33,250 nt of DNA from an uncultured Rikenellaceae bacterium (GTDB taxonomy: Bacteria > Bacteroidota > Bacteroidia > Bacteroidales > VadinHA17), in assembly GCA_964515985.1 (NCBI GenBank), contig CAZEWS010000005.1, positions 1 through 33,250 of the forward strand, in the 5' to 3' direction. Below, one piece after another: positions 161-19,531 of the stretch. The first letter of the stretch is position 1; each line of letters starts with the position of its first letter. Under the pieces are notes generated by a model, which made no database searches, had not been told where the DNA came from, and saw nothing but the letters and a program-made list of their open reading frames with translations. A program made the translations under genes and the position numbers.

Positions 161-1444
161 TCACCCGCCTGTAATTGAAGAAACCCTTACTGCCCGCCAC
201 GATGTCCTTCCTTTCTTCTTGTCAAAGGATGGCTTCAAATCGAAGTTCACAAGCTGCCCATTTTGTGTTCCATCTGGCAGGTCATCCTTACTGCAAAAGA
301 ATGATTCTTTTTCTCTTGTCTCAATAAAGCAAAAAGGTTTATTGGTGGTCCCAAGCTTAACTTTTCCTTTGAGGTTTCGCGTCTTTTGCTTTGGCGGCGG
401 TCCGTCATTTTCATCAACATTAGCCAGCCATGTTTTTTTACAAGTTTGGATACAATCGCTTGAAGTAGTGGGAAGGTCAACTTTTTGCTCTTTACTTTTC
501 AATTGCTCAATGATTTCAATCAATTCATCTGAAACAAACCATCCCTGCTCTTCTCTTATGCATCGAACTAGTTGGTAATGATAAAGCGCTTCCTTTGGTT
601 TTTGGGTTCGCAGCATTGCGTCAGCAAGGTCCCTAAACAAACTTACCTTGTTGGTTACCGGTCCGAGTGTAATAGCCGCTTTGAACATCGACTTCAAAGC
701 ATCTTCTTCCTTACCGTTCTTCAAAAGCACTTTAGCATATTCGTGCAACATCCACCAATCAACCCGTCCTTTCCTGGTCAGTTTATTATAGATTTCTTCT
801 CCAGCGGTGAAATTCTCTTGTGCAATACTCGCTTTCGCAACCAACCGTTCAAAGAACTTAGCCTTTCCCTTAAACTGGTCTTTAACTTGGTTTACAAGCT
901 CAATTCCTTCATTAAAGTTTCCATTCGCAATTAAGCCAGCCGACCGATAGTAATACCACAATTCCTTATTAGTCCAGTTGCCCTTTACAGCGCTTTCATC
1001 TTGTAATTGGTTAGGGTCAATTTTTATCAACCACTCGTTCATTATTTCCCAATCTCGATTTTTCTTAGCAACCTTAGCAACCTTAAACGCCACCATGTTG
1101 AAGGCGGTTAGCTCAGGATTCATTTCCAAGATATTGTTTGCAATGTCAGTGACAGTCAGGGTATCTATATCTTCCTCTAATCTATACAGTCTGCCAAAGA
1201 TGTTTGCCCAAATACACTCGTTCTTGCACCATTTGAAATCTGAATATTTTTCAAACACAACTTCCGAGAAGGCAAGTGCTTTATCGTGTTGTTTTATTTT
1301 GCGATAACAATGAAGTAATCCGGCTGCTGTGAACTTATCTTTTTTGGCCTCCCAAAGCTCCTCATACAGCTTGACTGCTTCTTCAAATTCCCCGCTTTTT
1401 CTAAGTTCGTTAGCTTCTGAACTCTTCTCTTGATTGGTTGCCAT
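161..1444 (-). CDS. TPR-like helical-repeat protein with a C-terminal cold-shock/OB-fold-like nucleic-acid-binding domain (last gene of the RnlA-like operon)
   Basis: 427-aa ORF. Its ATG overlaps the upstream stop (TAATG at 1444). The N-terminal ~330 aa are helical with TPR-like A/Y/W/L spacing. A Pro-rich linker (DENDGPPPKQK) follows. The C-terminus GKVKLG..KPFCFIE..FFCSKDDLPDG..GQLVNFDL..WRAVRV fits the CSD pattern GxVKxF..GFGFI..D.FvH..G..V.F. Confidence 0.7.
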   Translation of the reverse strand: MATNQEKSSEANELRKSGEFEEAVKLYEELWEAKKDKFTAAGLLHCYRKIKQHDKALAFSEVVFEKYSDFKWCKNECIWANIFGRLYRLEEDIDTLTVTDIANNILEMNPELTAFNMVAFKVAKVAKKNRDWEIMNEWLIKIDPNQLQDESAVKGNWTNKELWYYYRSAGLIANGNFNEGIELVNQVKDQFKGKAKFFERLVAKASIAQENFTAGEEIYNKLTRKGRVDWWMLHEYAKVLLKNGKEEDALKSMFKAAITLGPVTNKVSLFRDLADAMLRTQKPKEALYHYQLVRCIREEQGWFVSDELIEIIEQLKSKEQKVDLPTTSSDCIQTCKKTWLANVDENDGPPPKQKTRNLKGKVKLGTTNKPFCFIETREKESFFCSKDDLPDGTQNGQLVNFDLKPSFDKKKGRTSWRAVRVSSITGG

Positions 1445-2400
1445 TAGTCAAGTACTTGTACGGTGGTTTTAAAATGCATTTTAGCAACATTCGCCAACTG
1501 GTCTTGACCATGCTTTTCAACAAGCAGTTTTGCTTGCTCAACTACCTGTGGAGAGGCTCCTTTACTCAACTCCATTCCGTACTCTTCAGACAAATTCTTC
1601 ATTCTCTCAAGAAATCGTGCTCTTGCTAATATAGAAGCCGCAGCGACTGCAGTATGGCTCTCTGCTTTATGCTCTTGCGTAAGGTTTATTCTTCTGCCCT
1701 TTTCTTGCAACTTGCTCAGAATAAAACGTTCATCTGCAAACTTGTCCGACACCGCATTTTCGCAATCTACCTTTGTCAGAACTTCTTCAATGGCCTTAGC
1801 GTGCCCCCAAGCTAATAGCATGTTAAGATTTTTACCCTCGCGTTGAAATGTGTCATACAAATTGTTGTAGGTTGGTGGGGTTATTTCAATCACCGCATAT
1901 TGGTCATGGCAAATGTTACGTATCGTCCGCGCCAACTCCAATATTTTAGCGTCACTTATCTTCTTACTATCCCTGACACCAATTCTATCCAAAATAGTCT
2001 TAGTCCGAGCATCTACATACACTCCAGCAGCAACAAGTGGCCCAAAATAATCGCCCTTACCTGACTCATCTGTTCCAATGTTTGGTTTGAAGTTATCAAG
2101 TTTGTTTGCTTCGTGTCCATTAGCTCCTTGGTCTGGGGTGCTATCCTTGTGCCCTTCTAGTGCTTCAATGATGCGATGTTTTTTCTCATCCTCTTTAATA
2201 GGGGAGTAGTCATACTTTACTACCCCCTTTTTGTTGCGGTATATACGTATCAGTCCTTTCCAGCCACCTTCTGATATGCTGAATTGCACCCCGTAATCAA
2301 TCTCCTTGTAATCTCGCACGTTAAACCCAGCCTGCTCCAGTGCTGACTTGGAGGTTCCAAATATCTCTTGTAATATTTCCCTGTTGCTCATTTCCATCAT
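1444..2400 (-). CDS. rnhC: RNase HIII-like ribonuclease (TBP-like N-terminal domain + RNase HII/HIII catalytic domain)
   Basis: 318-aa ORF. The N-terminal ~85 aa (..VQFSISEGGWKGLIRIYRNKKGVV..) resemble the RNase HIII substrate-binding domain. GTDESGKGDYFGPLVAAGVYVD is the RNase HIII signature. SDKF and HKAESHTAVAAASILARARF complete a D-E-D-E set. The start overlaps the upstream stop by 1 nt (TAATG at 2400). Confidence 0.85.
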   Translation of the reverse strand: MMEMSNREILQEIFGTSKSALEQAGFNVRDYKEIDYGVQFSISEGGWKGLIRIYRNKKGVVKYDYSPIKEDEKKHRIIEALEGHKDSTPDQGANGHEANKLDNFKPNIGTDESGKGDYFGPLVAAGVYVDARTKTILDRIGVRDSKKISDAKILELARTIRNICHDQYAVIEITPPTYNNLYDTFQREGKNLNMLLAWGHAKAIEEVLTKVDCENAVSDKFADERFILSKLQEKGRRINLTQEHKAESHTAVAAASILARARFLERMKNLSEEYGMELSKGASPQVVEQAKLLVEKHGQDQLANVAKMHFKTTVQVLD

Positions 2401-3059
2401 TACGGATAAATCCCTCCAAATTCAGGCTCGTTAAAGTAGTCAAAGAGCTCCTTCGTGTTCTTTAAAATTTCGTCCAATTTGTCGCTGGCTTCCTCATGTG
2501 TATTTACTTTGGTTACAGTGCTACTGTCACTGTGCATCATAAAGTTTCTGGTCATATCGAGTGCAACAGATAGCTTATCGATATAACTTCCAGCATACTT
2601 TTCCTTCACGATTAAAGCAGTTCGCCTGGAATAGGTTTTATCCTTTAGATTGGTGAAGCCATCTTCCTTTCTGCTAAAATGTGTCGGTGGGTAAAATCCA
2701 ACCGCTAACAAAAGCTTTTTTGCAAACCCCTCAAAAGCCTTAGACGCTGGCATTACTACTGGTGAGTATTCAGGCAGCGGAATTCCGGCAATACGCAGAC
2801 ATTCTGCTGCAACAAACCACTTTTGGTCATGGGGTTCAAGGAACTTGTATGCATCCTGCAATACTCCCATGATGTTGTTCTCTGCAGTTTCAAGAAGTAG
2901 AGGCGTACATGAAGCAGTGAACTTCTCCAGCACTTCCTCATCATGGGAAATAAAACGGATTATGACCTCTTGCTCACTTGGAGTGCCTATTTTTTCGATG
3001 ATGTCACATACATCGTTAAAGAGCTTGTCTTCTTTACCTTGCAAAAAAGAGTGTCCCAT
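2400..3059 (-). CDS. HEPN-domain RNase, C-terminal (Dmd-binding-domain-like) part of a frameshift-split RnlA/LsoA-like toxin
   Basis: 219-aa ORF. Rx4H HEPN motif TRNFMMH (R171..H176) lies in a helical C-terminal region. The N-terminus MGHSFLQGKEDK continues the TBP-like motif of the upstream ORF in the +1 frame. It overlaps ORF 3034..3504 by 26 nt. Confidence 0.7.
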   Translation of the reverse strand: MGHSFLQGKEDKLFNDVCDIIEKIGTPSEQEVIIRFISHDEEVLEKFTASCTPLLLETAENNIMGVLQDAYKFLEPHDQKWFVAAECLRIAGIPLPEYSPVVMPASKAFEGFAKKLLLAVGFYPPTHFSRKEDGFTNLKDKTYSRRTALIVKEKYAGSYIDKLSVALDMTRNFMMHSDSSTVTKVNTHEEASDKLDEILKNTKELFDYFNEPEFGGIYP

Positions 3060-3504
3060 TGTTGAATTGTGTTACTGTTAGCGAGTATTCTGCTCTGATT
3101 ATCTTTGCTCGGTATTCTTGATGTGCAGCAGGGTTTTCTTCTATAGTGAGCGTTCCATAAATATCGTTGAGTTCATTCTTAATGGCTTCCTTTACTTTGT
3201 CGACAATTATCATATACTTCTGTGCGCATGACTTGACTTTAAGCTCCTCGATTTGTCTGAGAATCTCAGGCGAATCGGTCACTTTGGTTTTTAACTCATC
3301 GAACTCTTTCTTCAGTTGAAGCTTGGGACTACCTCCAGGCACGAACTTTCCTGTGTGGTAGAGCATGAGTGATATTTTTTCATAACCATTGGAGATTTCA
3401 TACTTCACGTAACCGTTCTGCTGAGTTTTGTTTACCTGATATTTTTTATCTTGACAGTATTTGTCAAGATAGTCTTCGATGAGATTTGCATGTCCTTCAG
3501 CCAT
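3034..3504 (-). CDS. N-terminal part of the RnlA/LsoA-like toxin: two tandem TBP-like (RNase HIII N-domain-like) repeats
   Basis: 156-aa ORF. YVKYEISNGYEKISLMLYHTGKF parallels VQFSISEGGWKGLIRIYRNKKGV of the neighbouring RNase HIII. The second repeat ends ..SLTVTQFNNGTLFFAR*, truncated inside the expected NGTLxxQGK motif. Confidence 0.7.
   Translation of the reverse strand: MAEGHANLIEDYLDKYCQDKKYQVNKTQQNGYVKYEISNGYEKISLMLYHTGKFVPGGSPKLQLKKEFDELKTKVTDSPEILRQIEELKVKSCAQKYMIIVDKVKEAIKNELNDIYGTLTIEENPAAHQEYRAKIIRAEYSLTVTQFNNGTLFFAR
3043..3048 (-). other. Homopolymer tract (A6 on the plus strand, T6 in the mRNA sense) at the frame junction of the split RnlA-like gene
   Basis: Sense strand reads AAT GGG ACA CTC TTT TTT GCA AGG TAA. 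Removing one T gives ..NGTLFLQGKEDKLF.. and fuses both ORFs into one ~370-aa reading frame. Confidence 0.8.
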
Positions 3505-3943
3505 GATTATTGTAATTAGGTATAAACAATAAATTTACAAAAATTATTCCTTTCATTTCTATTGACTTAAATAATGTAGTCTATATGACGTATTGACAGA
3601 GAGACAATCCTTAACTATGTTCTGATGAAAGCAAATTTTAATTATACAAGCATTGCCCGCAACTTGTTTATAAGGTGAATAAACTTCACATTCATACTCC
3701 GATATTTCCGGATAAGAGGAAGTTTGTTCCACTTTATTACAAATATAATCAAAAATCCATGTCCAAAAAAGGACTATTTATACTTAAATACTTGTTCTTT
3801 TATCTTACAGTTTACCCCGTTGGAAATTCCGAAATTCCTTCGGGGTTTATCTGGGTTAGGTATTTAGATCCCGAATAACTTCTGCCTGCCATAGGCATCC
3901 CTATGGGAAAAGGCATCGCTTTGTGAGCTTTCGGGATAAATTA

Positions 3944-5835: not shown

Positions 5836-7680
5836 TCAGCGGTTAACAGGCATATTGGAATAATTCCGGATTTTCATATTAGCTGTAATCTTTTCAACCG
5901 GTAAGGTAATCATAGACTCGGCGTAAATCTCTGCGAGGTCCTTTACAGGATAAAGACCGGCCATTTGGAAAGTCTTTTTACATAACGGACAACTGGTTGT
6001 TAGTTGTTGAGTATCATTTGTTACAATTTGCTCAATGGTTTCCCGGGCAATTTGCCTCTTTTCTTCGACATCCAGTTCCAGGTCAGCAAGGCTTCCACCG
6101 CAACATAAACCATCCCCAGGAGTGTAATCTTTGTTTTGTAAATAAACCAGTAAGTCCAGCACATTTCTCGGTTCACTGTAAATTCCCAGATCGCGTCCCA
6201 GTTCACAGGGATCATGATAAACAGTTTTTATTCCGTTTTGTTGAGGAATAAATCTTCCTTCTTTTATCAGGGAATTCAGATACTGGGAATGATGAACCAC
6301 AGGCACCTGGTAATAGTAATCATTTTTAAAGGTATTCAGACAAATCGGGCAGGTGGTAACGATTAATGCCGGATTACAATTCAGTATCTTACTCCGTGTT
6401 CTGTTCGAAATTTCCCTGAATGCTTCATATTGTCCTGATAACAGTAAAGGCCGGCCACAACATATGGCCTCATATTCATCAATAAAAATAAAATCTTCTC
6501 CGGTAAGCATAAAAATTTTCTTCATTGCTTCCGTGATCGCCGGGGTTAACCGTGTCAAACATCCGCCAAAAAAAACAATTTTTGATGGAAATGCCGGCCA
6601 TGAAGCCTCATCCAGATATGAGAAATCATAATTCATTTTTCCGTTTATCCTGTTCCTTTCGTTCATTCTTATTGAAAGTGTGTCTACCTGAACCGGGCAA
6701 ACCTGTTTACAACGTCCGCACATCAAACAATTCATAACTGAATTTTCTTTGGGTTTTTTCCCGTTCCGGAGATTTCTGAGGAAATATAACGATTGTCCCA
6801 TTAAGCCGGTTTTAACATTCATTTGACAGGCATCAAGGCATATTCCACATAAAGAACATGCATGTACCTGGAAATTGGTGATGCCGTCATCATGAAGAGC
6901 TTCTATATTGGCATTTTTAAAGAAAATATGCGGTATTTCGGTAAAGATATGCATGTAGCGGGAGAAGGGGAGAAGAATAAAAAATCCTCCCAGAACACTG
7001 GAATAAAACAACCATGCGGCATCTGAAAGGAAATAATAATTTTCCGGAAGATAAATCAGATTACCAAGAAAACCCGTAAAGAAACCACCCCCACCATAAA
7101 CGGTATGATTGAGTGATTCTGCTATCAGCCTGGCCGGGAAAACAAGCCATAAAAAAGCCAGTGCTGTTTTATCCGTACTGCTGTGATTTGCTGTTTTACT
7201 GACACCAAGGAGTTTTGCATTGAACCTTTTATAAATTGCAAGGAAAAGTCCTGATAAAATAAAAATCAAAAGGATATCCATGATATAATTAAACCCGATA
7301 TCCAGCCATCCGGTTTCCAAATATCCCCTTACATAAAAATCAAGGAATATTGCTTTAGATGGAGAGGAAAGAAATGTGCCTGTTTTACAGATGGTTTCAA
7401 GTTGCCCTGCCAATATGAGAAGAAACCACCCGAAAGCCAGGCTCGTATGCATATACCACAGTCGCCGGTTAACCTTAAATATTCTCATGTGTAGCAGGCA
7501 TTCCCTGAATACTTCAGCAAGTGAATCCACTAACCATTTTATTGACAGAGCTTTCTTTAGCCTTACTTTGTTTCTGATACGTAATGTCATGAACCAACGG
7601 GTATAACTGATTATCAATGATATAATCAGAAAAATCAATCCGATTGTGAACGGGATGACGAAAAATGATTCCATATCCAT
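5836..7680 (-). CDS. Membrane-anchored Fe-S oxidoreductase, HdrE/NarI-like TM domain fused to an HdrD/DsrK-like domain (2x[4Fe-4S] + two CCG domains)
   Basis: 614 aa. About 6 N-terminal TM helices. CSLCGICLDAC and CLMCGRCKQVCP ferredoxin motifs. CCGRP and CCGGS cysteine-rich (CCG) motifs. The start overlaps the upstream stop by 1 nt. Confidence 0.75.
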   Translation of the reverse strand: MDMESFFVIPFTIGLIFLIISLIISYTRWFMTLRIRNKVRLKKALSIKWLVDSLAEVFRECLLHMRIFKVNRRLWYMHTSLAFGWFLLILAGQLETICKTGTFLSSPSKAIFLDFYVRGYLETGWLDIGFNYIMDILLIFILSGLFLAIYKRFNAKLLGVSKTANHSSTDKTALAFLWLVFPARLIAESLNHTVYGGGGFFTGFLGNLIYLPENYYFLSDAAWLFYSSVLGGFFILLPFSRYMHIFTEIPHIFFKNANIEALHDDGITNFQVHACSLCGICLDACQMNVKTGLMGQSLYFLRNLRNGKKPKENSVMNCLMCGRCKQVCPVQVDTLSIRMNERNRINGKMNYDFSYLDEASWPAFPSKIVFFGGCLTRLTPAITEAMKKIFMLTGEDFIFIDEYEAICCGRPLLLSGQYEAFREISNRTRSKILNCNPALIVTTCPICLNTFKNDYYYQVPVVHHSQYLNSLIKEGRFIPQQNGIKTVYHDPCELGRDLGIYSEPRNVLDLLVYLQNKDYTPGDGLCCGGSLADLELDVEEKRQIARETIEQIVTNDTQQLTTSCPLCKKTFQMAGLYPVKDLAEIYAESMITLPVEKITANMKIRNYSNMPVNR

Positions 7681-8087
7681 CAGGTTTTGTATATTTCAAA
7701 TATTCTTTTCATTTCTACAATCGCTTTTCTCGTATTAACTCCCCTGGGGCATACCAACCAGCATTTACCACAATACTGACAGTATTTCAATCCTCTTTTC
7801 AGATTTACATACAAGCCGGTTTTTAAATAGAGATGTAATTTTCTGAACCCCATTCCGGTTTTTTCAGATGAATTACAGGTAGCGGTGCATGAACCGCATG
7901 AAATGCATAATGATAAGGAAGGGACCCTTTCTATCATTTCCTTGTAATCAACATTTGGTCGGTCCTGGTCAAGCAACTGATCTTTATGAATTTTGAAGCC
8001 AAAATCTATCATGCTGATCCTGATTTTCAGATATAAAAGAATTTCTAAGAAAATGATGTACCTCAAATGCAACCCTTGATGCTTCAT
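7680..8087 (-). CDS. Small 4Fe-4S dicluster ferredoxin (HdrC-like)
   Basis: CISCGSCTATCNS and CQYCGKCWLVCPRG motifs. The track start at 8087 overlaps the HdrA-like gene by 104 nt. The internal Met (MIDFGFK, about 8012) is the more plausible start. Confidence 0.65.
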   Translation of the reverse strand: MKHQGLHLRYIIFLEILLYLKIRISMIDFGFKIHKDQLLDQDRPNVDYKEMIERVPSLSLCISCGSCTATCNSSEKTGMGFRKLHLYLKTGLYVNLKRGLKYCQYCGKCWLVCPRGVNTRKAIVEMKRIFEIYKT

Positions 8088-9063
8088 TCATCGATTCTGT
8101 AATATTTTTTGGCCCTGTGCAGGCACCTGCAAAGAATAATCCATTTTTTAAAGGGTTTAATGAAAAATCAATTTTACCCGTCCCAAAAAATCCATCGGTC
8201 CCGGTCTGTTCATTTATTAACGGGCATATCTGGCTTACGGATTTATCAAGCTGCATGCCAATCAATAATACTATCATATCCACCGTCATTTTAGCCGGTT
8301 TTCCTGCAAGCGTATCTTCGTATCTTATTACCAATGAACCGTCAACATCTTCATTTGTTTCAGAGAGTCTCCCGCGTATAAATTGTATTTTGTGGCACAT
8401 CTGTGCCATCTTATAATTGTCTTCATAAAATCGTCCGTTCAGTCTCAGGTCCATATACAGGCAACTGACCTGGATTTCGGGAATCCTTTTCCTGAGTTCC
8501 ATAGCTTGTTTAATCCCGGTGATACAACATACCGATGAGCAATATTCACTTCCAACCTTAATGTCTCTCGATCCCACACAATGAATCATTGCGACTTTGC
8601 CCGGAACCTTTCCATTTGTCATTGTAATGTAATTATTTTTAAATTTATCTTCCAGTTCAACAGAAGTAATTACGTTATCATATATCCCATAGCCGTATTC
8701 TTCCTTTCTCCCGGCATTAAAAGGATTAAAACCTGTTGATATAAAAAGAGCAGGGCTTGTGTAGATAGTTTGGTTCTGATCTGCTACTGTAAATCCTTCA
8801 GGACTTTTTGTAATTGTTTCGATTTGTACCGATGTCATTAAGTTTTTTTTCTGATCTTTCAGCAATGGATTAAGAATCTCCATAGCAGATTCATTATGTG
8901 GGAAAAGTGTGTTCCATAGCAATAGTTTTCCTCCCGGATGATCCTCCTTTTCCAGGATATATATTTTATAGCCCAGTGACTGCAGAATTGTGCCTGCTTT
9001 CAATCCTGCCGGACCGGCTCCAATAATAATACAATCAGCTTCTGTTCTTTTCATATTTTTCAA
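7984..9063 (-). CDS. HdrA-like FAD-dependent oxidoreductase (short HdrA/QmoA type)
   Basis: 359 aa. GAGPAGLKAG dinucleotide fold. CVGSRD..YCSSVCC motif typical of the HdrA Fe-S site. 4-nt overlap with the upstream gene. Confidence 0.75.
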   Translation of the reverse strand: MKNMKRTEADCIIIGAGPAGLKAGTILQSLGYKIYILEKEDHPGGKLLLWNTLFPHNESAMEILNPLLKDQKKNLMTSVQIETITKSPEGFTVADQNQTIYTSPALFISTGFNPFNAGRKEEYGYGIYDNVITSVELEDKFKNNYITMTNGKVPGKVAMIHCVGSRDIKVGSEYCSSVCCITGIKQAMELRKRIPEIQVSCLYMDLRLNGRFYEDNYKMAQMCHKIQFIRGRLSETNEDVDGSLVIRYEDTLAGKPAKMTVDMIVLLIGMQLDKSVSQICPLINEQTGTDGFFGTGKIDFSLNPLKNGLFFAGACTGPKNITESMNEASRVAFEVHHFLRNSFISENQDQHDRFWLQNS

Positions 9064-10130
9064 TAAACTTTTAGCAAATCGGGTATTTGGGGTTTTGATA
9101 GTTGTTTGCCTGAAAATCCTATATATTTCAAAGCCGGATCGTAATCCACACCCATTTTTTCCAATAATGGTTCGACCGCCACCTGGTGCATTTGTAATCC
9201 CAGGTCCCAGGGATCATATCCGAGGGCCAGGGCGGCAACTTCTTCGTATGTTAGAACAGGAATTCCATTACCTTCCTCACCATAAGTTTCTCTCTTCGTC
9301 TCACTGATGACATATTGCCATCGATCGAAGAAAAAATTACAGCCGGGACAATTGGTAACTATCAGGTCAGGTTTATAGGGTTCCATGGATTTCATTTTTC
9401 TGTATGTACAGGATAAGGAATACCCCCTGCTTGCCTTTACAATGTATTGTCTGAATCCAAATCCGCAACACATCCTTCTTTCCGGATAATCAATTACCTC
9501 ACCACCCAACGATTCTATAAGACCGGCAAGAACATAAGGATGTTCTGCTCCCCCGATCCCCTTCTCAGGGAACATTTTGGCATAGTGACAACCGATATGC
9601 TCAACCACCTGAAGTGGTTTTCCCGTATATTGATTTATAAGTTTGTATTGCGTTTTGGCTGCGATCTGACCCCTGAATTTAAAGATGATATCACTGGCAT
9701 GGACAAGATTTTCCGGTATTTTAAATTCTCTTCCTGTTGAACGGTACAGGTAATCACGTACCTGTTCCTCAATTTCCGGATGTTTCTCCCATATATCCAG
9801 GATTTCATTATACAAACCAAAGGAAGTAACACAGGAAATTACAAAATTGCGATATCCGGCTTCTGACATCAGGGCAAACTGCCTTGCAATCACTGTCATA
9901 GTTGTTTCAAGCTTTACCAGGTCAACATGATAACCGATCCCTGTACAGGTTGTATGATTGGGATCGTTGTACAAATCTTTTCCCAGATCGTTCCTTAATA
10001 TCCTGATGAATGCTTCTTCAGCACCGGGAAAGAAGTTTTGCCTGACACAACTCCTGACAAAAAAATATTGATCATCGGCAATATCTTTCTGATATTCATT
10101 CCAGAATACTTTTTTACCGTCAACTTTCAT
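9060..10130 (-). CDS. HdrB-like protein with CCG cysteine-rich domains
   Basis: 356 aa. RMCCGFGFR and NCPGCNFFFD motifs. Sits between the HdrC-like and HdrA-like genes with overlapping ends. Confidence 0.7.
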   Translation of the reverse strand: MKVDGKKVFWNEYQKDIADDQYFFVRSCVRQNFFPGAEEAFIRILRNDLGKDLYNDPNHTTCTGIGYHVDLVKLETTMTVIARQFALMSEAGYRNFVISCVTSFGLYNEILDIWEKHPEIEEQVRDYLYRSTGREFKIPENLVHASDIIFKFRGQIAAKTQYKLINQYTGKPLQVVEHIGCHYAKMFPEKGIGGAEHPYVLAGLIESLGGEVIDYPERRMCCGFGFRQYIVKASRGYSLSCTYRKMKSMEPYKPDLIVTNCPGCNFFFDRWQYVISETKRETYGEEGNGIPVLTYEEVAALALGYDPWDLGLQMHQVAVEPLLEKMGVDYDPALKYIGFSGKQLSKPQIPDLLKVY

Positions 10131-10827
10131 CCTCAGGCTGGTTTTTGGAATACATTAACTGGAAATATTCATTCCAGATCGTATCATCATACTCCAGATT
10201 TAGTTTTTTCGCACATTTAGCTGCATCGTTCTCTAATTTTTCAAACCGGTCAGTGCAGCCGGTGATATTAAAAATCGTTTTAAGTTCATTCATGCTCGTT
10301 TTTGAAATTTTCCTGAGTGGACCGTTGCCAGGCTTGTTATATGAATTGCCGAAGAGATTATATATTTCACTGCTGTTTTTTCTTATCCAGTCCCAAACGG
10401 GGCCCTGTTCCGGGAATAAACCGGTATCCACACTATCGGCATGAACACAATAACCGGTAGCCAGAATTGTATCCCCGATAAGCTTCTTTAAAACATACAT
10501 CTGCTTTCCCCTGTGGGAGTGCAGGTACAATCCTGTTTCAATGGAAAGGTTTCGAAGTGCCAATATTAACAATCCGGGGGTATTACCCCGGGGACATCTG
10601 GTTTTACATGACATACACTGTCCGCAATACCATATTTTTTCACCTTTCAGAAGTTCCTCAAGTATTTTCTCATCCTCAACCTGAAGAGCATCGGCAATTT
10701 CCCTTGGGTCGTAATCATAAAAGGAAGCGGCTGGACAAATGGCTGTGCAGGTACCGCAATTAATACACGCTTCCAGTCCTTCACTGAACCGGACATCTTG
10801 TTGTAAACGTTCAAATAACTTTCCCAC
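10120..10827 (-). CDS. HdrC-like 4Fe-4S dicluster protein (apparent GTG start)
   Basis: 235 aa. CINCGTCTAICPA and CGQCMSCKTRCPRG motifs. First gene of the hdr-like operon. Confidence 0.7.
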   Translation of the reverse strand: MGKLFERLQQDVRFSEGLEACINCGTCTAICPAASFYDYDPREIADALQVEDEKILEELLKGEKIWYCGQCMSCKTRCPRGNTPGLLILALRNLSIETGLYLHSHRGKQMYVLKKLIGDTILATGYCVHADSVDTGLFPEQGPVWDWIRKNSSEIYNLFGNSYNKPGNGPLRKISKTSMNELKTIFNITGCTDRFEKLENDAAKCAKKLNLEYDDTIWNEYFQLMYSKNQPEDES

Positions 10828-10961: not shown

Positions 10962-11606
10962 CTAAATCTCAATAAGTTTGTTTTCAACGGCATACATGAC
11001 CAGACTTGCCGTGTTGTGTGTATTTGTCTTATCAAGGATGTTTGCCCTGTGCTTATCAACTGTCCTCTTGCTTATATTAAGTTCATCGGCGATCTCCAGG
11101 TTGGAATACCCCTTACATATCAAGGCAAGGATCTCATTCTCCCTGGTCGATAAATGAACTTCGGTGGTTTTATCCTTATTGATCTCTTTAATACTCTTAA
11201 CTACATTATATAAAACTTCCTGGCTGAAAAATGTTCCTCCGTTATGCACAGTTTTAATCGCTTTGACCACTTCATCAATACCGGAAGTTTTCAGGATAAA
11301 TCCTTTTGCTCCTGCCTCGATCATTTTCAAATAATATTCTTCTTCACCGTACATGGATAGTGTAATGATCTTAAGGTCGGGATACATCTGAATGGCTAAA
11401 CGGGATGCTTCAATTCCATTCATTACCGGCATTTCAATATCCATCAACACTACATCAGGGGTAGTCTTTTGCAACAATTTACAAAACTCTTTTCCGTTTT
11501 CAGCTTCGCCTGTTATCTCTATTTCTTTTTCCCCTTTCAGTAAAGTAGACAGACCATTTCTGAATAATTTATGATCATCCACCAAAACAACTTTAACCTT
11601 TTTCAT
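10962..11606 (-). CDS. NarL/FixJ-family response regulator (REC + LuxR-type HTH)
   Basis: 214 aa. VVLVDDH..DVVLMDIEMP receiver domain. C-terminal LSTRENEILALICKGYSNLEIADELNISKRTVDKHR. Confidence 0.9.
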   Translation of the reverse strand: MKKVKVVLVDDHKLFRNGLSTLLKGEKEIEITGEAENGKEFCKLLQKTTPDVVLMDIEMPVMNGIEASRLAIQMYPDLKIITLSMYGEEEYYLKMIEAGAKGFILKTSGIDEVVKAIKTVHNGGTFFSQEVLYNVVKSIKEINKDKTTEVHLSTRENEILALICKGYSNLEIADELNISKRTVDKHRANILDKTNTHNTASLVMYAVENKLIEI

Positions 11607-12610
11607 TTTCTTATATCTTTAAGCTTGAGAACAATTTCAGCTTCCATTCCACTTCCCGGTATACTTTCCACCGAGAAACGGCCGTTAACCGATTGCAGCC
11701 TTGAATGTATGTTATTGAAACCCGATCCGGTTGATCCGTCCTTTTCCAATATTTTCGGATCAAATCCCTTACCATCGTCCTTATAATGAATTAGCATCAT
11801 ATCTTCGGTTTTAAAAATCTTTAAGATAGCATTACTTGCCTCAGCATGACGAATAGTATTGTTAATAAGTTCACAAATAGCACGAAACAAGATTATTTCG
11901 ACTTCCGTTTGAAAACGTTCTTTGTTGAGATTGGAACTGAAATGTATCCTGATCCTGCCGGCATAATTGATCCTGTTTACAAATGTACGCAGCATCGATT
12001 CAAGTCCGAAATTACTCAGTATATGCGGACTGAGATTTTCTGAAATTTCTTTCAGACCGTTGATCGCTTCTTCAATAAGTTCGGAGGTATTGTTAATTAT
12101 ATTGCTAACCTTTTCAGTAAGCTCACTTTTCTGTAGTGCAGAAAAAGACATTTTTACTGTGGATAATATAGGCCCTAACCCGTCATGCATATCTTTAGCA
12201 AACCGTTTACGTTCTTTTTCTTCTGTCTGAATTATCGCATTTAATACCCTTCTTTCGGATAATTTTCTGATCTTATCAGCTTCCTTAAGAGATTTAAATA
12301 TCTTTTTAATAAATATAATACTCACCGTTATCAGAACGGACGTACCAATACCTGTCCATGAACTGAGCATAGAGAGGTCTTTTGAGTATGTCGGGAACAT
12401 ATAGGGCAGAAATTCAATTAGTCTGCGAATGGCGGTCAAAAAAAGTGCTATGGAAATCAATATCCACGAGAGATTATATTTTGTCAACTTAGTGAGACTA
12501 ATCGCTATAAAAGCAGCCACAAACTGCAGAATAAAAGAAACGATCAAACCGTAAAATGTTGCCATGATTTTAATTTTAGTTGATTGATTACTTAAAACAA
12601 AGATAAACAA
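11603..12610 (-). CDS. Membrane sensor histidine kinase (HisKA_3 + HATPase_c), with no obvious periplasmic domain
   Basis: 335 aa. H-box FAKDMHDGLGPIL, N/G boxes ELINNTIRHA, DDGKGFD, GSGFNNI. 3-4 closely spaced TM helices. The likely true start is MATFYG at about 12565. 4-nt overlap with the RR gene. Confidence 0.85.
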   Translation of the reverse strand: MFIFVLSNQSTKIKIMATFYGLIVSFILQFVAAFIAISLTKLTKYNLSWILISIALFLTAIRRLIEFLPYMFPTYSKDLSMLSSWTGIGTSVLITVSIIFIKKIFKSLKEADKIRKLSERRVLNAIIQTEEKERKRFAKDMHDGLGPILSTVKMSFSALQKSELTEKVSNIINNTSELIEEAINGLKEISENLSPHILSNFGLESMLRTFVNRINYAGRIRIHFSSNLNKERFQTEVEIILFRAICELINNTIRHAEASNAILKIFKTEDMMLIHYKDDGKGFDPKILEKDGSTGSGFNNIHSRLQSVNGRFSVESIPGSGMEAEIVLKLKDIRK

Positions 12611-18558: not shown

Positions 18559-18632
18559 GCCACTTTAGCTCAGATGGTCAGAGCGGTTGTTTCGTAAACA
18601 ACAGGTCACGGGTTCGATTCCCGTAGGTGGCT
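18559..18632 (+). tRNA. tRNA-Thr (anticodon CGT)
   Basis: Hand-folded cloverleaf: acceptor gccactt/aggtggc, D arm gctc..gagc, anticodon arm gttgt-ttCGTaa-acaac, T arm acggg-ttcgatt-cccgt. No encoded CCA. Coordinates +/-1. Confidence 0.85.
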
Positions 18633-18664
18633 CAAATTTAAATCGTTTTCCAAACTGATAAGTT

Positions 18665-19455: not shown

Positions 19456-19527
19456 GCGGGAGTAGCTCAGTGGTAGAGCATCAGCTTCCCAAGCTGAGGG
19501 TCGCGGGTTCGATCCCCGTTTCCCGCT
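19456..19527 (+). tRNA. tRNA-Gly (anticodon CCC)
   Basis: Acceptor gcgggag/ttcccgc, D arm gctc-agtggta-gagc, anticodon arm tcagc-ttCCCaa-gctga, T arm gcggg-ttcgatc-cccgt. Confidence 0.9.
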
Positions 19528-19531
19528 CAAA

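Follow-up and report, generated by a model that had tools for sequence, protein, structure and literature searches.

What kind of system is encoded where an RNA-cleaving HEPN protein, an RNase H enzyme and a repeat protein with a nucleic-acid-binding fold share one short operon? The question is raised by a contig from an uncultured Rikenellaceae bacterium (GenBank assembly GCA_964515985.1, contig CAZEWS010000005.1, positions 1 to 33,250 of the forward strand). This whole stretch of 33,250 nucleotides (nt), here called the window, carries near one end a cassette of open reading frames (ORFs) for an RnlA-like HEPN protein, an RNase HIII-like protein and a protein in which a TPR array is joined to a cold-shock-like domain (the TPR–CSD protein). 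A preliminary description of the locus had proposed the combination as an undescribed toxin–antitoxin or anti-phage module.

The combination turns out to be described. Pfam families named for 'TOTE conflict systems' (S1CSD-TOTE-2, TBP-TOTE, AEP-TOTE and Mu_Gam-TOTE) match the window proteins or their relatives, as does DUF7017, which is not TOTE-named. In addition, the PADLOC model PDLC01170 ('TPR repeats containing protein fused to cold shock-like domain (OB-fold)') matches the TPR–CSD protein at 1.7e-25. TOTE stands for TPR, OB, TBP and Effector and is credited to Aravind, Iyer and Burroughs 2022 (PMC12458937, YprA preprint); RNase H domains are often part of TOTE systems (PMC12458937). Judged by these family matches, the trio is a cassette of the computationally named TOTE conflict systems, and the window locus is a new, damaged member of this predicted, experimentally unexplored kind. 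This membership is more certain than the overall mechanistic picture given below, and the mechanistic steps are less so.

Three genes, one of them frameshifted

The cassette and its upstream region contain the following features:

ORF1, 3034..3504, minus strand, 156 amino acids (aa): 5′ fragment of the RnlA-like gene, covering merged residues 1-153, with the first TBP-like domain and the greater part of the second
ORF2, 2400..3059, minus strand, 219 aa: 3′ fragment of the RnlA-like gene, with the last strand of TBP-like domain 2 and the predicted HEPN (RnlA DBD) RNase domain
ORF3, 1444..2400, minus strand, 318 aa: RNase HIII-like protein, with a ~90-aa N-terminal domain and an RNase H2-fold catalytic domain
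ORF4, 161..1444, minus strand, 427 aa: TPR–CSD protein, a TOTE hallmark
T6 homopolymer with one extra T, 3043..3048, minus strand: frameshift dividing the RnlA-like gene
HEPN catalytic motif R319-N-F-M-M-H324 (Rx4H), 2549..2532, minus strand: its partners K255 and E258 are in the segment that begins at window 2741
TPR solenoid of ORF4, residues 4-341, window 422-1435
Cold-shock-like five-stranded barrel of ORF4, residues 357-423, window 176-376: RNP-like motifs KPFCFI and SFFC
Upstream non-coding region, 3505..3700, minus strand: putative cassette promoter

The preliminary description had counted four chained minus-strand ORFs. The coordinates and the overlaps between consecutive frames (26, 1 and 1 nt, both 1-nt overlaps being TAATG) are correct, but the number of genes is three rather than four: by comparison with homologues, which run intact across the ORF1/ORF2 junction and have NGTL[FL]LQGK.D there, ORF1 and ORF2 are pieces of one gene. 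Every ORF has highly significant homologues, which excludes chance. DNA similarity with the closest locus (73%) covers window 3508..212, that is, exactly the three genes, and the contig ends 160 nt past ORF4. The region 3505..3700 probably contains the cassette promoter. A sigma-70-like match lies there at 3670..3641 (10/12 positions), although such sites are no more numerous in the region than in shuffled sequence, and the promoter and terminator scans likewise gave counts not above shuffled sequence. The leader is not conserved, as similarity with the closest locus ends at 3508.

At the ORF1/ORF2 junction the minus strand reads ACA CTC TTT TTT GCA AGG TAA, in which the T6 run corresponds to window 3043-3048. 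Taking one T from this run joins the two frames as ...NNGTLFLQGKEDKLF... / ...TQFNNGTLFLQGKEDKLF... in a merged protein of 367 aa. The T5 version restores the conserved NGTLFLQGKED, the motif NGTL[FL]LQGK.D being found here in every intact homologue compared, and the 26-nt overlap of ORF1 and ORF2 exists because of the frameshift. The closest homologue reads CTA TTT CTA CAG at the junction, without a T-run, so the run itself is not conserved. Programmed frameshifting was rejected, since the closest homologue has no such run and every other homologue has the gene as a single ORF.

The record of a second NCBI contig (3,918 nt) also includes a peptide beginning MGHSF, which is specific to the shifted frame, so that the frameshift has been seen twice; a homopolymer error could be shared by both contigs. 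Exact-product look-ups of ORF4 and ORF2 for a second contig with the frameshift returned no record. A further locus (L136) has an ORF3 identical to that of the window, but its sequence ends short of the ORF1/ORF2 junction. As read from the sequence, the window copy probably lacks a fully functional HEPN effector, and its other two genes are intact.

Degraded copies were also seen elsewhere. In a Flavobacteriaceae metagenome-assembled genome (MAG; L011:7958-9048) the RnlA-like gene lies in three pieces, in L054 all three cassette genes are fragmented, and the TPR–CSD gene is split in L038 (10001-11315), L036 and L033. Some of the MAGs with degraded copies may have been assembled from long reads, and indel errors are common in such assemblies.

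The RnlA-like HEPN protein

A search with the merged protein returned 374 homologues at E<=1e-3. Among the 120 matches listed, nearly all are 361-372 aa long, seven are exactly 367 aa, and the best (P0001) is intact and 82% identical over 99% of the length. NCBI names the homologues 'type II toxin-antitoxin system RnlA family toxin'; intact ones carry precomputed matches to RnlA_toxin PF15935 and/or PF19034, and some to DUF3378. The window fragments gave weaker matches. ORF2 is marginal against the Pfam family RnlA-toxin_DBD PF19034 (27.3 bits, gathering cutoff 27) and reaches only 13 bits with HEPN_RnaseLS, and neither ORF1 nor ORF2 drew anything useful from PADLOC, PHROGs or NCBIfam. Against PDB sequences, the merged protein matches RnlA entries only (4i8o/6y2p, E 4e-4 to 3e-3), in a collinear alignment that places query residues 204-270 on RnlA residues 204-270 (E about 9e-4).

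A family profile was weaker against the PDB (E 0.012-0.02) than the single sequence, and it was the fold search that settled the question. The structure used was an AlphaFold2 model of P0001, the homologue 82% identical to the merged window protein, with a mean predicted local distance difference test (pLDDT) score of 87.6. The top nine Foldseek matches of this model are RnlA structures, at E about 1e-9 over about 365 aligned columns, with template modelling (TM) scores of 0.52-0.55, or 0.70 when normalised to the target 7aex (NRD-HEPN fragment); LsoA (5hy3) comes next at 5e-4. The fold of the P0001 model has the NTD(TBP1)-NRD(TBP2)-DBD(HEPN) architecture of RnlA and LsoA, which bears out the domain order (TBP-like, TBP-like, HEPN) proposed in the preliminary description. 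Merged residues 319-324 form the Rx4H motif, RNFMMH, a position also predicted there.

Residues K255, E258, R319, N320 and H324 are invariant in a 30-sequence family alignment, and all five are retained in the window copy; at position 255 the family has K throughout, where RnlA has R. In E. coli RnlA, R255, E258, R318 and H323 are essential (PMC8266594). Taking sequence and model together, gene 1 is of the RnlA type, predicted to comprise two TBP-like domains and a HEPN RNase whose active site is complete in sequence.

The RNase HIII-like protein

ORF3 scores 207 bits against the NCBIfam rnhC equivalog TIGR00716 (cutoff 161) and matches Geobacillus stearothermophilus RNase HIII (PDB 2d0a) at 1.4e-26 as a single sequence and 4.5e-40 as a profile; it is annotated rnhC in public records. 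The window copy has the DEDE residues D111, E112, D219 and E247, which do not vary among 18 cassette homologues. These matches agree with the preliminary description of ORF3 as an RNase HIII with intact catalytic residues, and gene 2 is accordingly classed, at the sequence level, as a nuclease of RNA:DNA hybrids, of the RNase HIII type, whose DEDE site is complete.

The N-terminal domain is less clear. Its match to Pfam TBP-TOTE is weak in the window copy (E 0.013), and TBP-TOTE matches this domain in 4 of 18 family members, also weakly (best E 7e-4); DUF3378 gave no match. Homology of the ORF3 N-domain to the first TBP-like domain of the RnlA-like protein was not supported, the hhalign E of 0.087 not being significant. 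Residues 6-81 also show weak matches to the C-terminus of the PADLOC candidate PDC-M16A (E 0.006) and to the NCBIfam CRISPR-associated primase-polymerase type B (E 0.034), and ORF4 shows a weak match to PDC-M16B. On the strength of the weak matches to PDC-M16A and PDC-M16B, PDC-M16 may be a TOTE-like candidate system. A literature search for DUF7017, TBP-TOTE, S1CSD-TOTE and PDC-M16 found no papers.

The TPR–CSD protein

In the AlphaFold2 model of ORF4 (pLDDT 92), 18 helices lead into a barrel of five strands at residues 358-423. The helices match TPR superhelices, and the barrel retains the RNP-like aromatic motifs KPFCFI and SFFC. Among 24 members of the family, DUF7017 is found in 23 and S1CSD-TOTE-2 in 12 (best E 3e-6); the window copy is sub-threshold for the latter, with 18 bits where the gathering score is 27. 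One relative, P0348, reaches the gathering score of the canonical CSD family PF00313. Model and family matches alike indicate that gene 3 joins a TPR solenoid to a cold-shock-like OB domain with RNP-like aromatic residues, the architecture that had been read from the window sequence beforehand. The family is of modest size, with 344 clusters (50% identity, E<=1e-30) among 1.84 billion representative proteins.

Four cysteines of ORF4 (C46, C335, C372 and C384) are invariant across 24 TPR–CSD homologues, two of them within the TPR part and the other two within the CSD's RNP-like motifs; they may form a metal site or a redox-sensitive interdomain contact. A separate observation concerns P0256, a recorded product of 754 aa in which an RNase HIII-like part, 54% identical to ORF3, is fused to a full TPR–CSD part. 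P0256 is either a genuine fusion or an artefact of assembly or gene calling; if genuine, it suggests that the RNase HIII-like and TPR–CSD proteins act together.

Conservation and genomic context

Genomes were scanned with a TPR–CSD profile, taking one genome per species and annotating the loci with hidden Markov models. This gave 49 loci, which are spread over many bacterial phyla and also occur in archaea; about 23 of them have the order RnlA-like, RNase HIII-like, TPR–CSD. These trios come from Bacteroidota (Flavobacteriia, Cytophagia), Ignavibacteriales, Chloroflexota (Dehalococcoidia), Desulfobacterota including Syntrophaceae, Spirochaetia, Planctomycetota (Planctomycetales), Nitrospirota, WOR-3, ANME-2 and Methanothrix, and the trio is present in at least one strain in culture, Reichenbachiella agariperforans DSM 26134 (NZ_FRAA01000001.1, at about 27.8-31.2 kb). 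A metagenome scan with the RnlA-like profile covered 80 loci: 58 contain the full ordered trio, 13 contain the first two genes and then meet a contig edge, and 4 have room for a partner that is absent (the TPR–CSD gene in 3, the RNase HIII-like gene in 1). Intergenic distances are about -4 to +15 nt in the loci inspected. The conservation of the trio, which the preliminary description had left to be checked, is borne out by both scans.

Clustering the flanking ORFs of 81 complete trios revealed no fourth conserved gene and no small antitoxin. The largest flanking clusters cover 8 of the 81 loci; one is a type III methylase and another a translated conserved non-coding leader. RnlB (PF15933) is not conserved beside these trios and was found only in the variant loci described in the next section as class B. 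Within the window cassette there is no space for an RnlB-like gene, and the only small ORF upstream (57 aa) has no RnlB match. The absence of a small RnlB/LsoB-like antitoxin ORF, noted at the outset for the window, therefore extends to the whole of class A, as we call the trios of the window's type (81 trios). The trio genes travel together across bacterial phyla and archaea without an RnlB antitoxin.

Defence genes often adjoin trio or TPR–CSD loci, namely restriction–modification, GmrSD, nSTAND3 and CRISPR genes. In an Ignavibacteriales MAG (L030:5326-14051) the trio lies between a type III-like DNA methylase (mod, 868 aa) and a Res-type helicase/restriction subunit (923 aa), and homologues of this methylase adjoin the trio in 8 of 81 loci. 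Neighbours at other loci are an EcoRII/Vsr/Dcm restriction–modification set with a weak SIR2-like match (L055), nSTAND3 (L001), GmrSD (L051) and a DNA methyltransferase (L019).

Distant TPR–CSD genes occur in other company. In a Sumerlaeota MAG (L037:6738-12676) one lies between Cas1-Cas2 and a CARF-HEPN Csm6 and is preceded by a TPR/AEP-TOTE primase/Mu-Gam-TOTE protein; this locus is a TOTE variant within CRISPR adaptation and ancillary genes. Another, in L015, lies with NERD helicases. The pattern fits a constant TPR-OB core with variable effectors, in which the trio is dominant and the other partners are AEP-TOTE/Cas1/Cas2/Csm6, NERD helicases and canonical RnlAB.

A phage origin of the cassette was rejected, as no relatives of ORF4 or of the RnlA-like protein were found on IMG/VR viral contigs and ORF4 had no match in GenBank phage records. 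A plasmid origin was likewise considered and dropped, a 665-kb Bacillus plasmid being the only plasmid record matched.

Seven loci (L017 (7840-7913), L083, L093, L102, L106, L116 and L135) share a conserved non-coding leader of ~75 nt directly upstream of the RnlA-like start codon, GTTATGTGCAATGCCTTTGGAAGTAAGTAATGAAAGAGGTTATATCATAGAAATACTT.AGGAGGTTTAAGAGATG, and their similarity ends abruptly 5′ of it. In that clade this leader may be the promoter or 5′ untranslated region and the left boundary of the mobile cassette; nothing corresponds to it in the window. Elsewhere in the window, minus-strand genes at 5836-10827 encode heterodisulfide reductase-like Fe-S, CCG-domain and pyridine-nucleotide-disulphide-oxidoreductase proteins and adjoin mnmE, and a LuxR-type two-component pair follows this cluster at 10962-12610. 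The names of the clusters matched by MnmE indicate a Bacteroidales/Bacteroidota MAG. Plus-strand genes for tRNA-Thr(CGT) (18559-18633) and tRNA-Gly(CCC) (19456-19528) are distant from the cassette, and the window shows no sign of cassette integration at a tRNA.

A related class with RnlB

Three loci combine an RNase HIII gene and a TPR–CSD gene with a canonical RnlA and an RnlB, and we refer to them as class B:

L029, 9045-12822, Cytobacillus oceanisediminis
L137, 7054-10813, 665-kb plasmid of Bacillus sp. BR3 (NZ_CP152438.1, cassette at 646241-650000)
L032, 275-3061, Pseudomonadota MAG

In L029 and L137 the RNase HIII-like gene lies upstream of the TPR–CSD gene; the contig of L032 starts just upstream of the TPR–CSD gene, and the position is not visible there. 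The class B RnlA matches PF19034 at 95-106 bits together with HEPN_RnaseLS and RnlA_toxin_N, and the RnlB that follows it matches PF15933 at 87-92 bits. Class B resembles the window cassette in that its RNase HIII-like and TPR–CSD genes are orthologous to those of the window (E 1e-74 and 6e-137 against window-based queries) and in that both are joined to an RnlA-family HEPN toxin. It differs in having another gene order, a canonical RnlA and a true RnlB, whereas the window class is without RnlB.

Proposed function and alternatives

The restriction–modification, GmrSD, nSTAND3 and CRISPR neighbours may point to a function of the trio in conflict with phages or mobile elements. We hold, with moderate confidence, that the cassette is a TOTE-type defence trio in which the TPR–CSD protein does the sensing, two nucleases act and the role of RnlB has been taken over. 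The TPR–CSD protein would be both sensor and scaffold, its CSD binding single-stranded RNA or DNA exposed by the invader and its TPR array holding both nucleases. The TBP-like domains would steer the nucleases to RNA:DNA hybrids (replication primers, R-loops, transcription bubbles), a step that draws on the known role of the RNase HIII N-domain. A 2013 survey of HEPN proteins reported a TBP-like domain fused to the RNase LS HEPN domain and proposed RNA in RNA:DNA duplexes as the target (PMC3710099). RNase HIII would cut the hybrid's RNA strand, with the HEPN protein cutting the associated single-stranded RNA, and the outcome would be invader-specific restriction or abortive infection.

In such a scheme RNase HIII and/or the TPR–CSD protein would probably stand in for RnlB in regulating the HEPN toxin, by analogy with the action of E. 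coli RNase HI on the second TBP-like domain of RnlA. RNase HI binds to RnlA at its NRD, stimulates RnlA and must be present if RnlB is to inhibit RnlA (PMC5308261); this link, cited in the preliminary description, is documented. A more specific version, in which the RNase HIII-like and/or TPR–CSD protein of class A keeps the HEPN RNase inactive and releases or activates it on invader RNA:DNA hybrids or single-stranded nucleic acid, is put forward only tentatively and seems to us rather doubtful. If it is true, the trio would be a hybrid-sensing, three-component abortive-infection or restriction system, the RnlB-bearing class B loci would be an evolutionary intermediate, and there would be a mechanistic reason for the dependence of E. 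coli RnlA on RNase HI.

Several points weigh against the defence picture. We infer the sensing step, the formation of a complex and the target alike. TOTE membership comes through Pfam family names and a secondary citation (PMC12458937) rather than the defining paper, and the searchable literature yielded no experimental work on any TOTE system. PADLOC, to which the preliminary description had referred the locus, recognises the TPR–CSD protein through PDLC01170 but no other protein here and no complete named system. The TBP-like character of the ORF3 N-domain, with its weak matches only, is not established. The window copy is frameshifted and may not function as described. Furthermore, its flank is made up of housekeeping genes (mnmE, Hdr-like Fe-S proteins, a two-component system, sucD, fabG) and its GC content is unremarkable (0.415 versus 0.387), so the local context gives no sign of a defence island.

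The locus might instead be an RnlA-type type II toxin–antitoxin or addiction module, with the HEPN protein as toxin and the RNase HIII-like and/or TPR–CSD protein as a new antitoxin replacing RnlB, whose main role would be element stabilisation or growth arrest and not the sensing of invader nucleic acid. NCBI's RnlA-family toxin name for the homologues and the match to RnlA in fold and active site speak for this, as does class B, which retains a bona fide RnlB beside a canonical RnlA together with RNase HIII and TPR–CSD. Moreover, the toxin-like gene is the broken one in the window and in L011, as expected of a costly toxin, and E. coli RNase HI aids the action of RnlB (PMC5308261). We nevertheless regard an addiction module as unlikely. 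Both putative antitoxins are large, and one is a nuclease with a conserved, intact active site, unlike a labile antitoxin; the TPR–CSD protein also pairs with the non-toxin-like AEP primase, Cas1-Cas2, Csm6 and NERD helicases, which points to a sensor or adaptor role; and the cassette is on one plasmid record only. In any case E. coli RnlAB is itself anti-phage, so the two explanations overlap. Much less probable still, indeed hardly credible to us, is a housekeeping operon for RNA:DNA-hybrid metabolism (primer or R-loop removal, RNA turnover), in which ORF3 would be an ordinary RNase HIII and its neighbours accessory RNA-binding or RNA-degrading factors. The rnhC annotation of ORF3 and its score above the equivalog cutoff (207 versus 161 bits) would suit such an operon, as would the housekeeping flank of the window and the lack of a compositional anomaly. 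Against it are the patchy spread over distant phyla and archaea with only three genes common to the loci, the restriction–modification, GmrSD, nSTAND and CRISPR neighbours, the recurrence of pseudogenised copies, a partner from a known anti-phage toxin family, and a TPR–CSD family as small as 344 clusters among 1.84 billion representatives.

A further reading concerns the state of this copy and is compatible with a defence function of the family. The locus could be a decaying remnant in this genome, the frameshift being truly inactivating so that no full-length HEPN RNase is made, and the locus either idle or active through RNase HIII and TPR–CSD only; to this joint claim we give slightly less than even weight. 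It is favoured by the single +1 T in the T6 run, the shifted-frame peptide on the second NCBI contig, the single-ORF state of the RnlA-like gene in all 80 metagenome homologues and the unconserved T-run of the closest homologue, which makes programmed frameshifting unlikely. RnlA without TBP1 loses substrate binding (PMC8266594), and L011, L054, L038, L036 and L033 are further degraded copies. Homopolymer indels, on the other hand, are a frequent sequencing and assembly error in MAGs, and a systematic error could be common to two contigs. No other lesion is seen in the 367 codons, and an intact homologue shares 82% identity with the merged protein, so any inactivation would be recent, and ORF2 has its own ATG, from which a HEPN-only product could be made.

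With the trio read as a TOTE-type defence system, the window copy adds little beyond one more damaged member of the family. The trio itself forms a compact module, widespread among bacteria and archaea and strongly conserved, that is directly testable in a cultured strain, and the RnlB of class B links it to the well-studied RnlAB and offers a way into the dependence of RnlA on an RNase H enzyme. The main value lies in this clean, widespread trio, its RnlB-bearing sister class and the question of how RnlA and RNase H are coupled.

Comparison with known systems

All four name-giving elements of TOTE conflict systems are present in the cassette. ORF4 combines a TPR array with an S1/CSD-type OB domain in one protein, and TBP-like domains are fused to an effector in the RnlA-like protein. 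The effectors are nucleases of the HEPN and RNase H types, both with active sites intact in sequence, and relatives of ORF4 adjoin AEP-TOTE and Mu-Gam-TOTE proteins. The window differs in that its effector is frameshifted. TALON shares the TPR–CSD fusion and TBP proteins, but it has a core of YprA helicase and NERD nuclease with inactivated RNase H-fold domains, whereas the window is without the helicase and has an intact RNase H-type enzyme.

Bacterial RNase HIII (rnhC, PDB 2D0A) resembles ORF3 in its catalytic domain, DEDE residues, length and two-domain layout, and ORF3 passes the rnhC equivalog. However, the N-domain of ORF3 is not alignable with the canonical N-domain at the sequence level, and the cassette gene is always embedded in a mobile cassette, in contrast to a standalone housekeeping gene.

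RnlA-RnlB and LsoA-LsoB (PDB 4I8O, 6Y2P, 5HY3) share with gene 1 the TBP1-TBP2-HEPN architecture, a similar length (367 versus 357 aa for RnlA), a collinear alignment and conserved equivalents of the catalytic E258, R318 and H323. They also share a link to an RNase H enzyme, which is functional in E. coli and is proposed by analogy for the cassette. Identity is only about 15%, however, and R255 of RnlA is replaced by an invariant K in the cassette family. The cassette is without RnlB/LsoB and has RNase HIII-like and TPR–CSD genes downstream instead. Finally, whereas the E. coli partner is an unlinked housekeeping RNase HI of type 1, that of the cassette is a linked RNase HIII with a type 2 fold.

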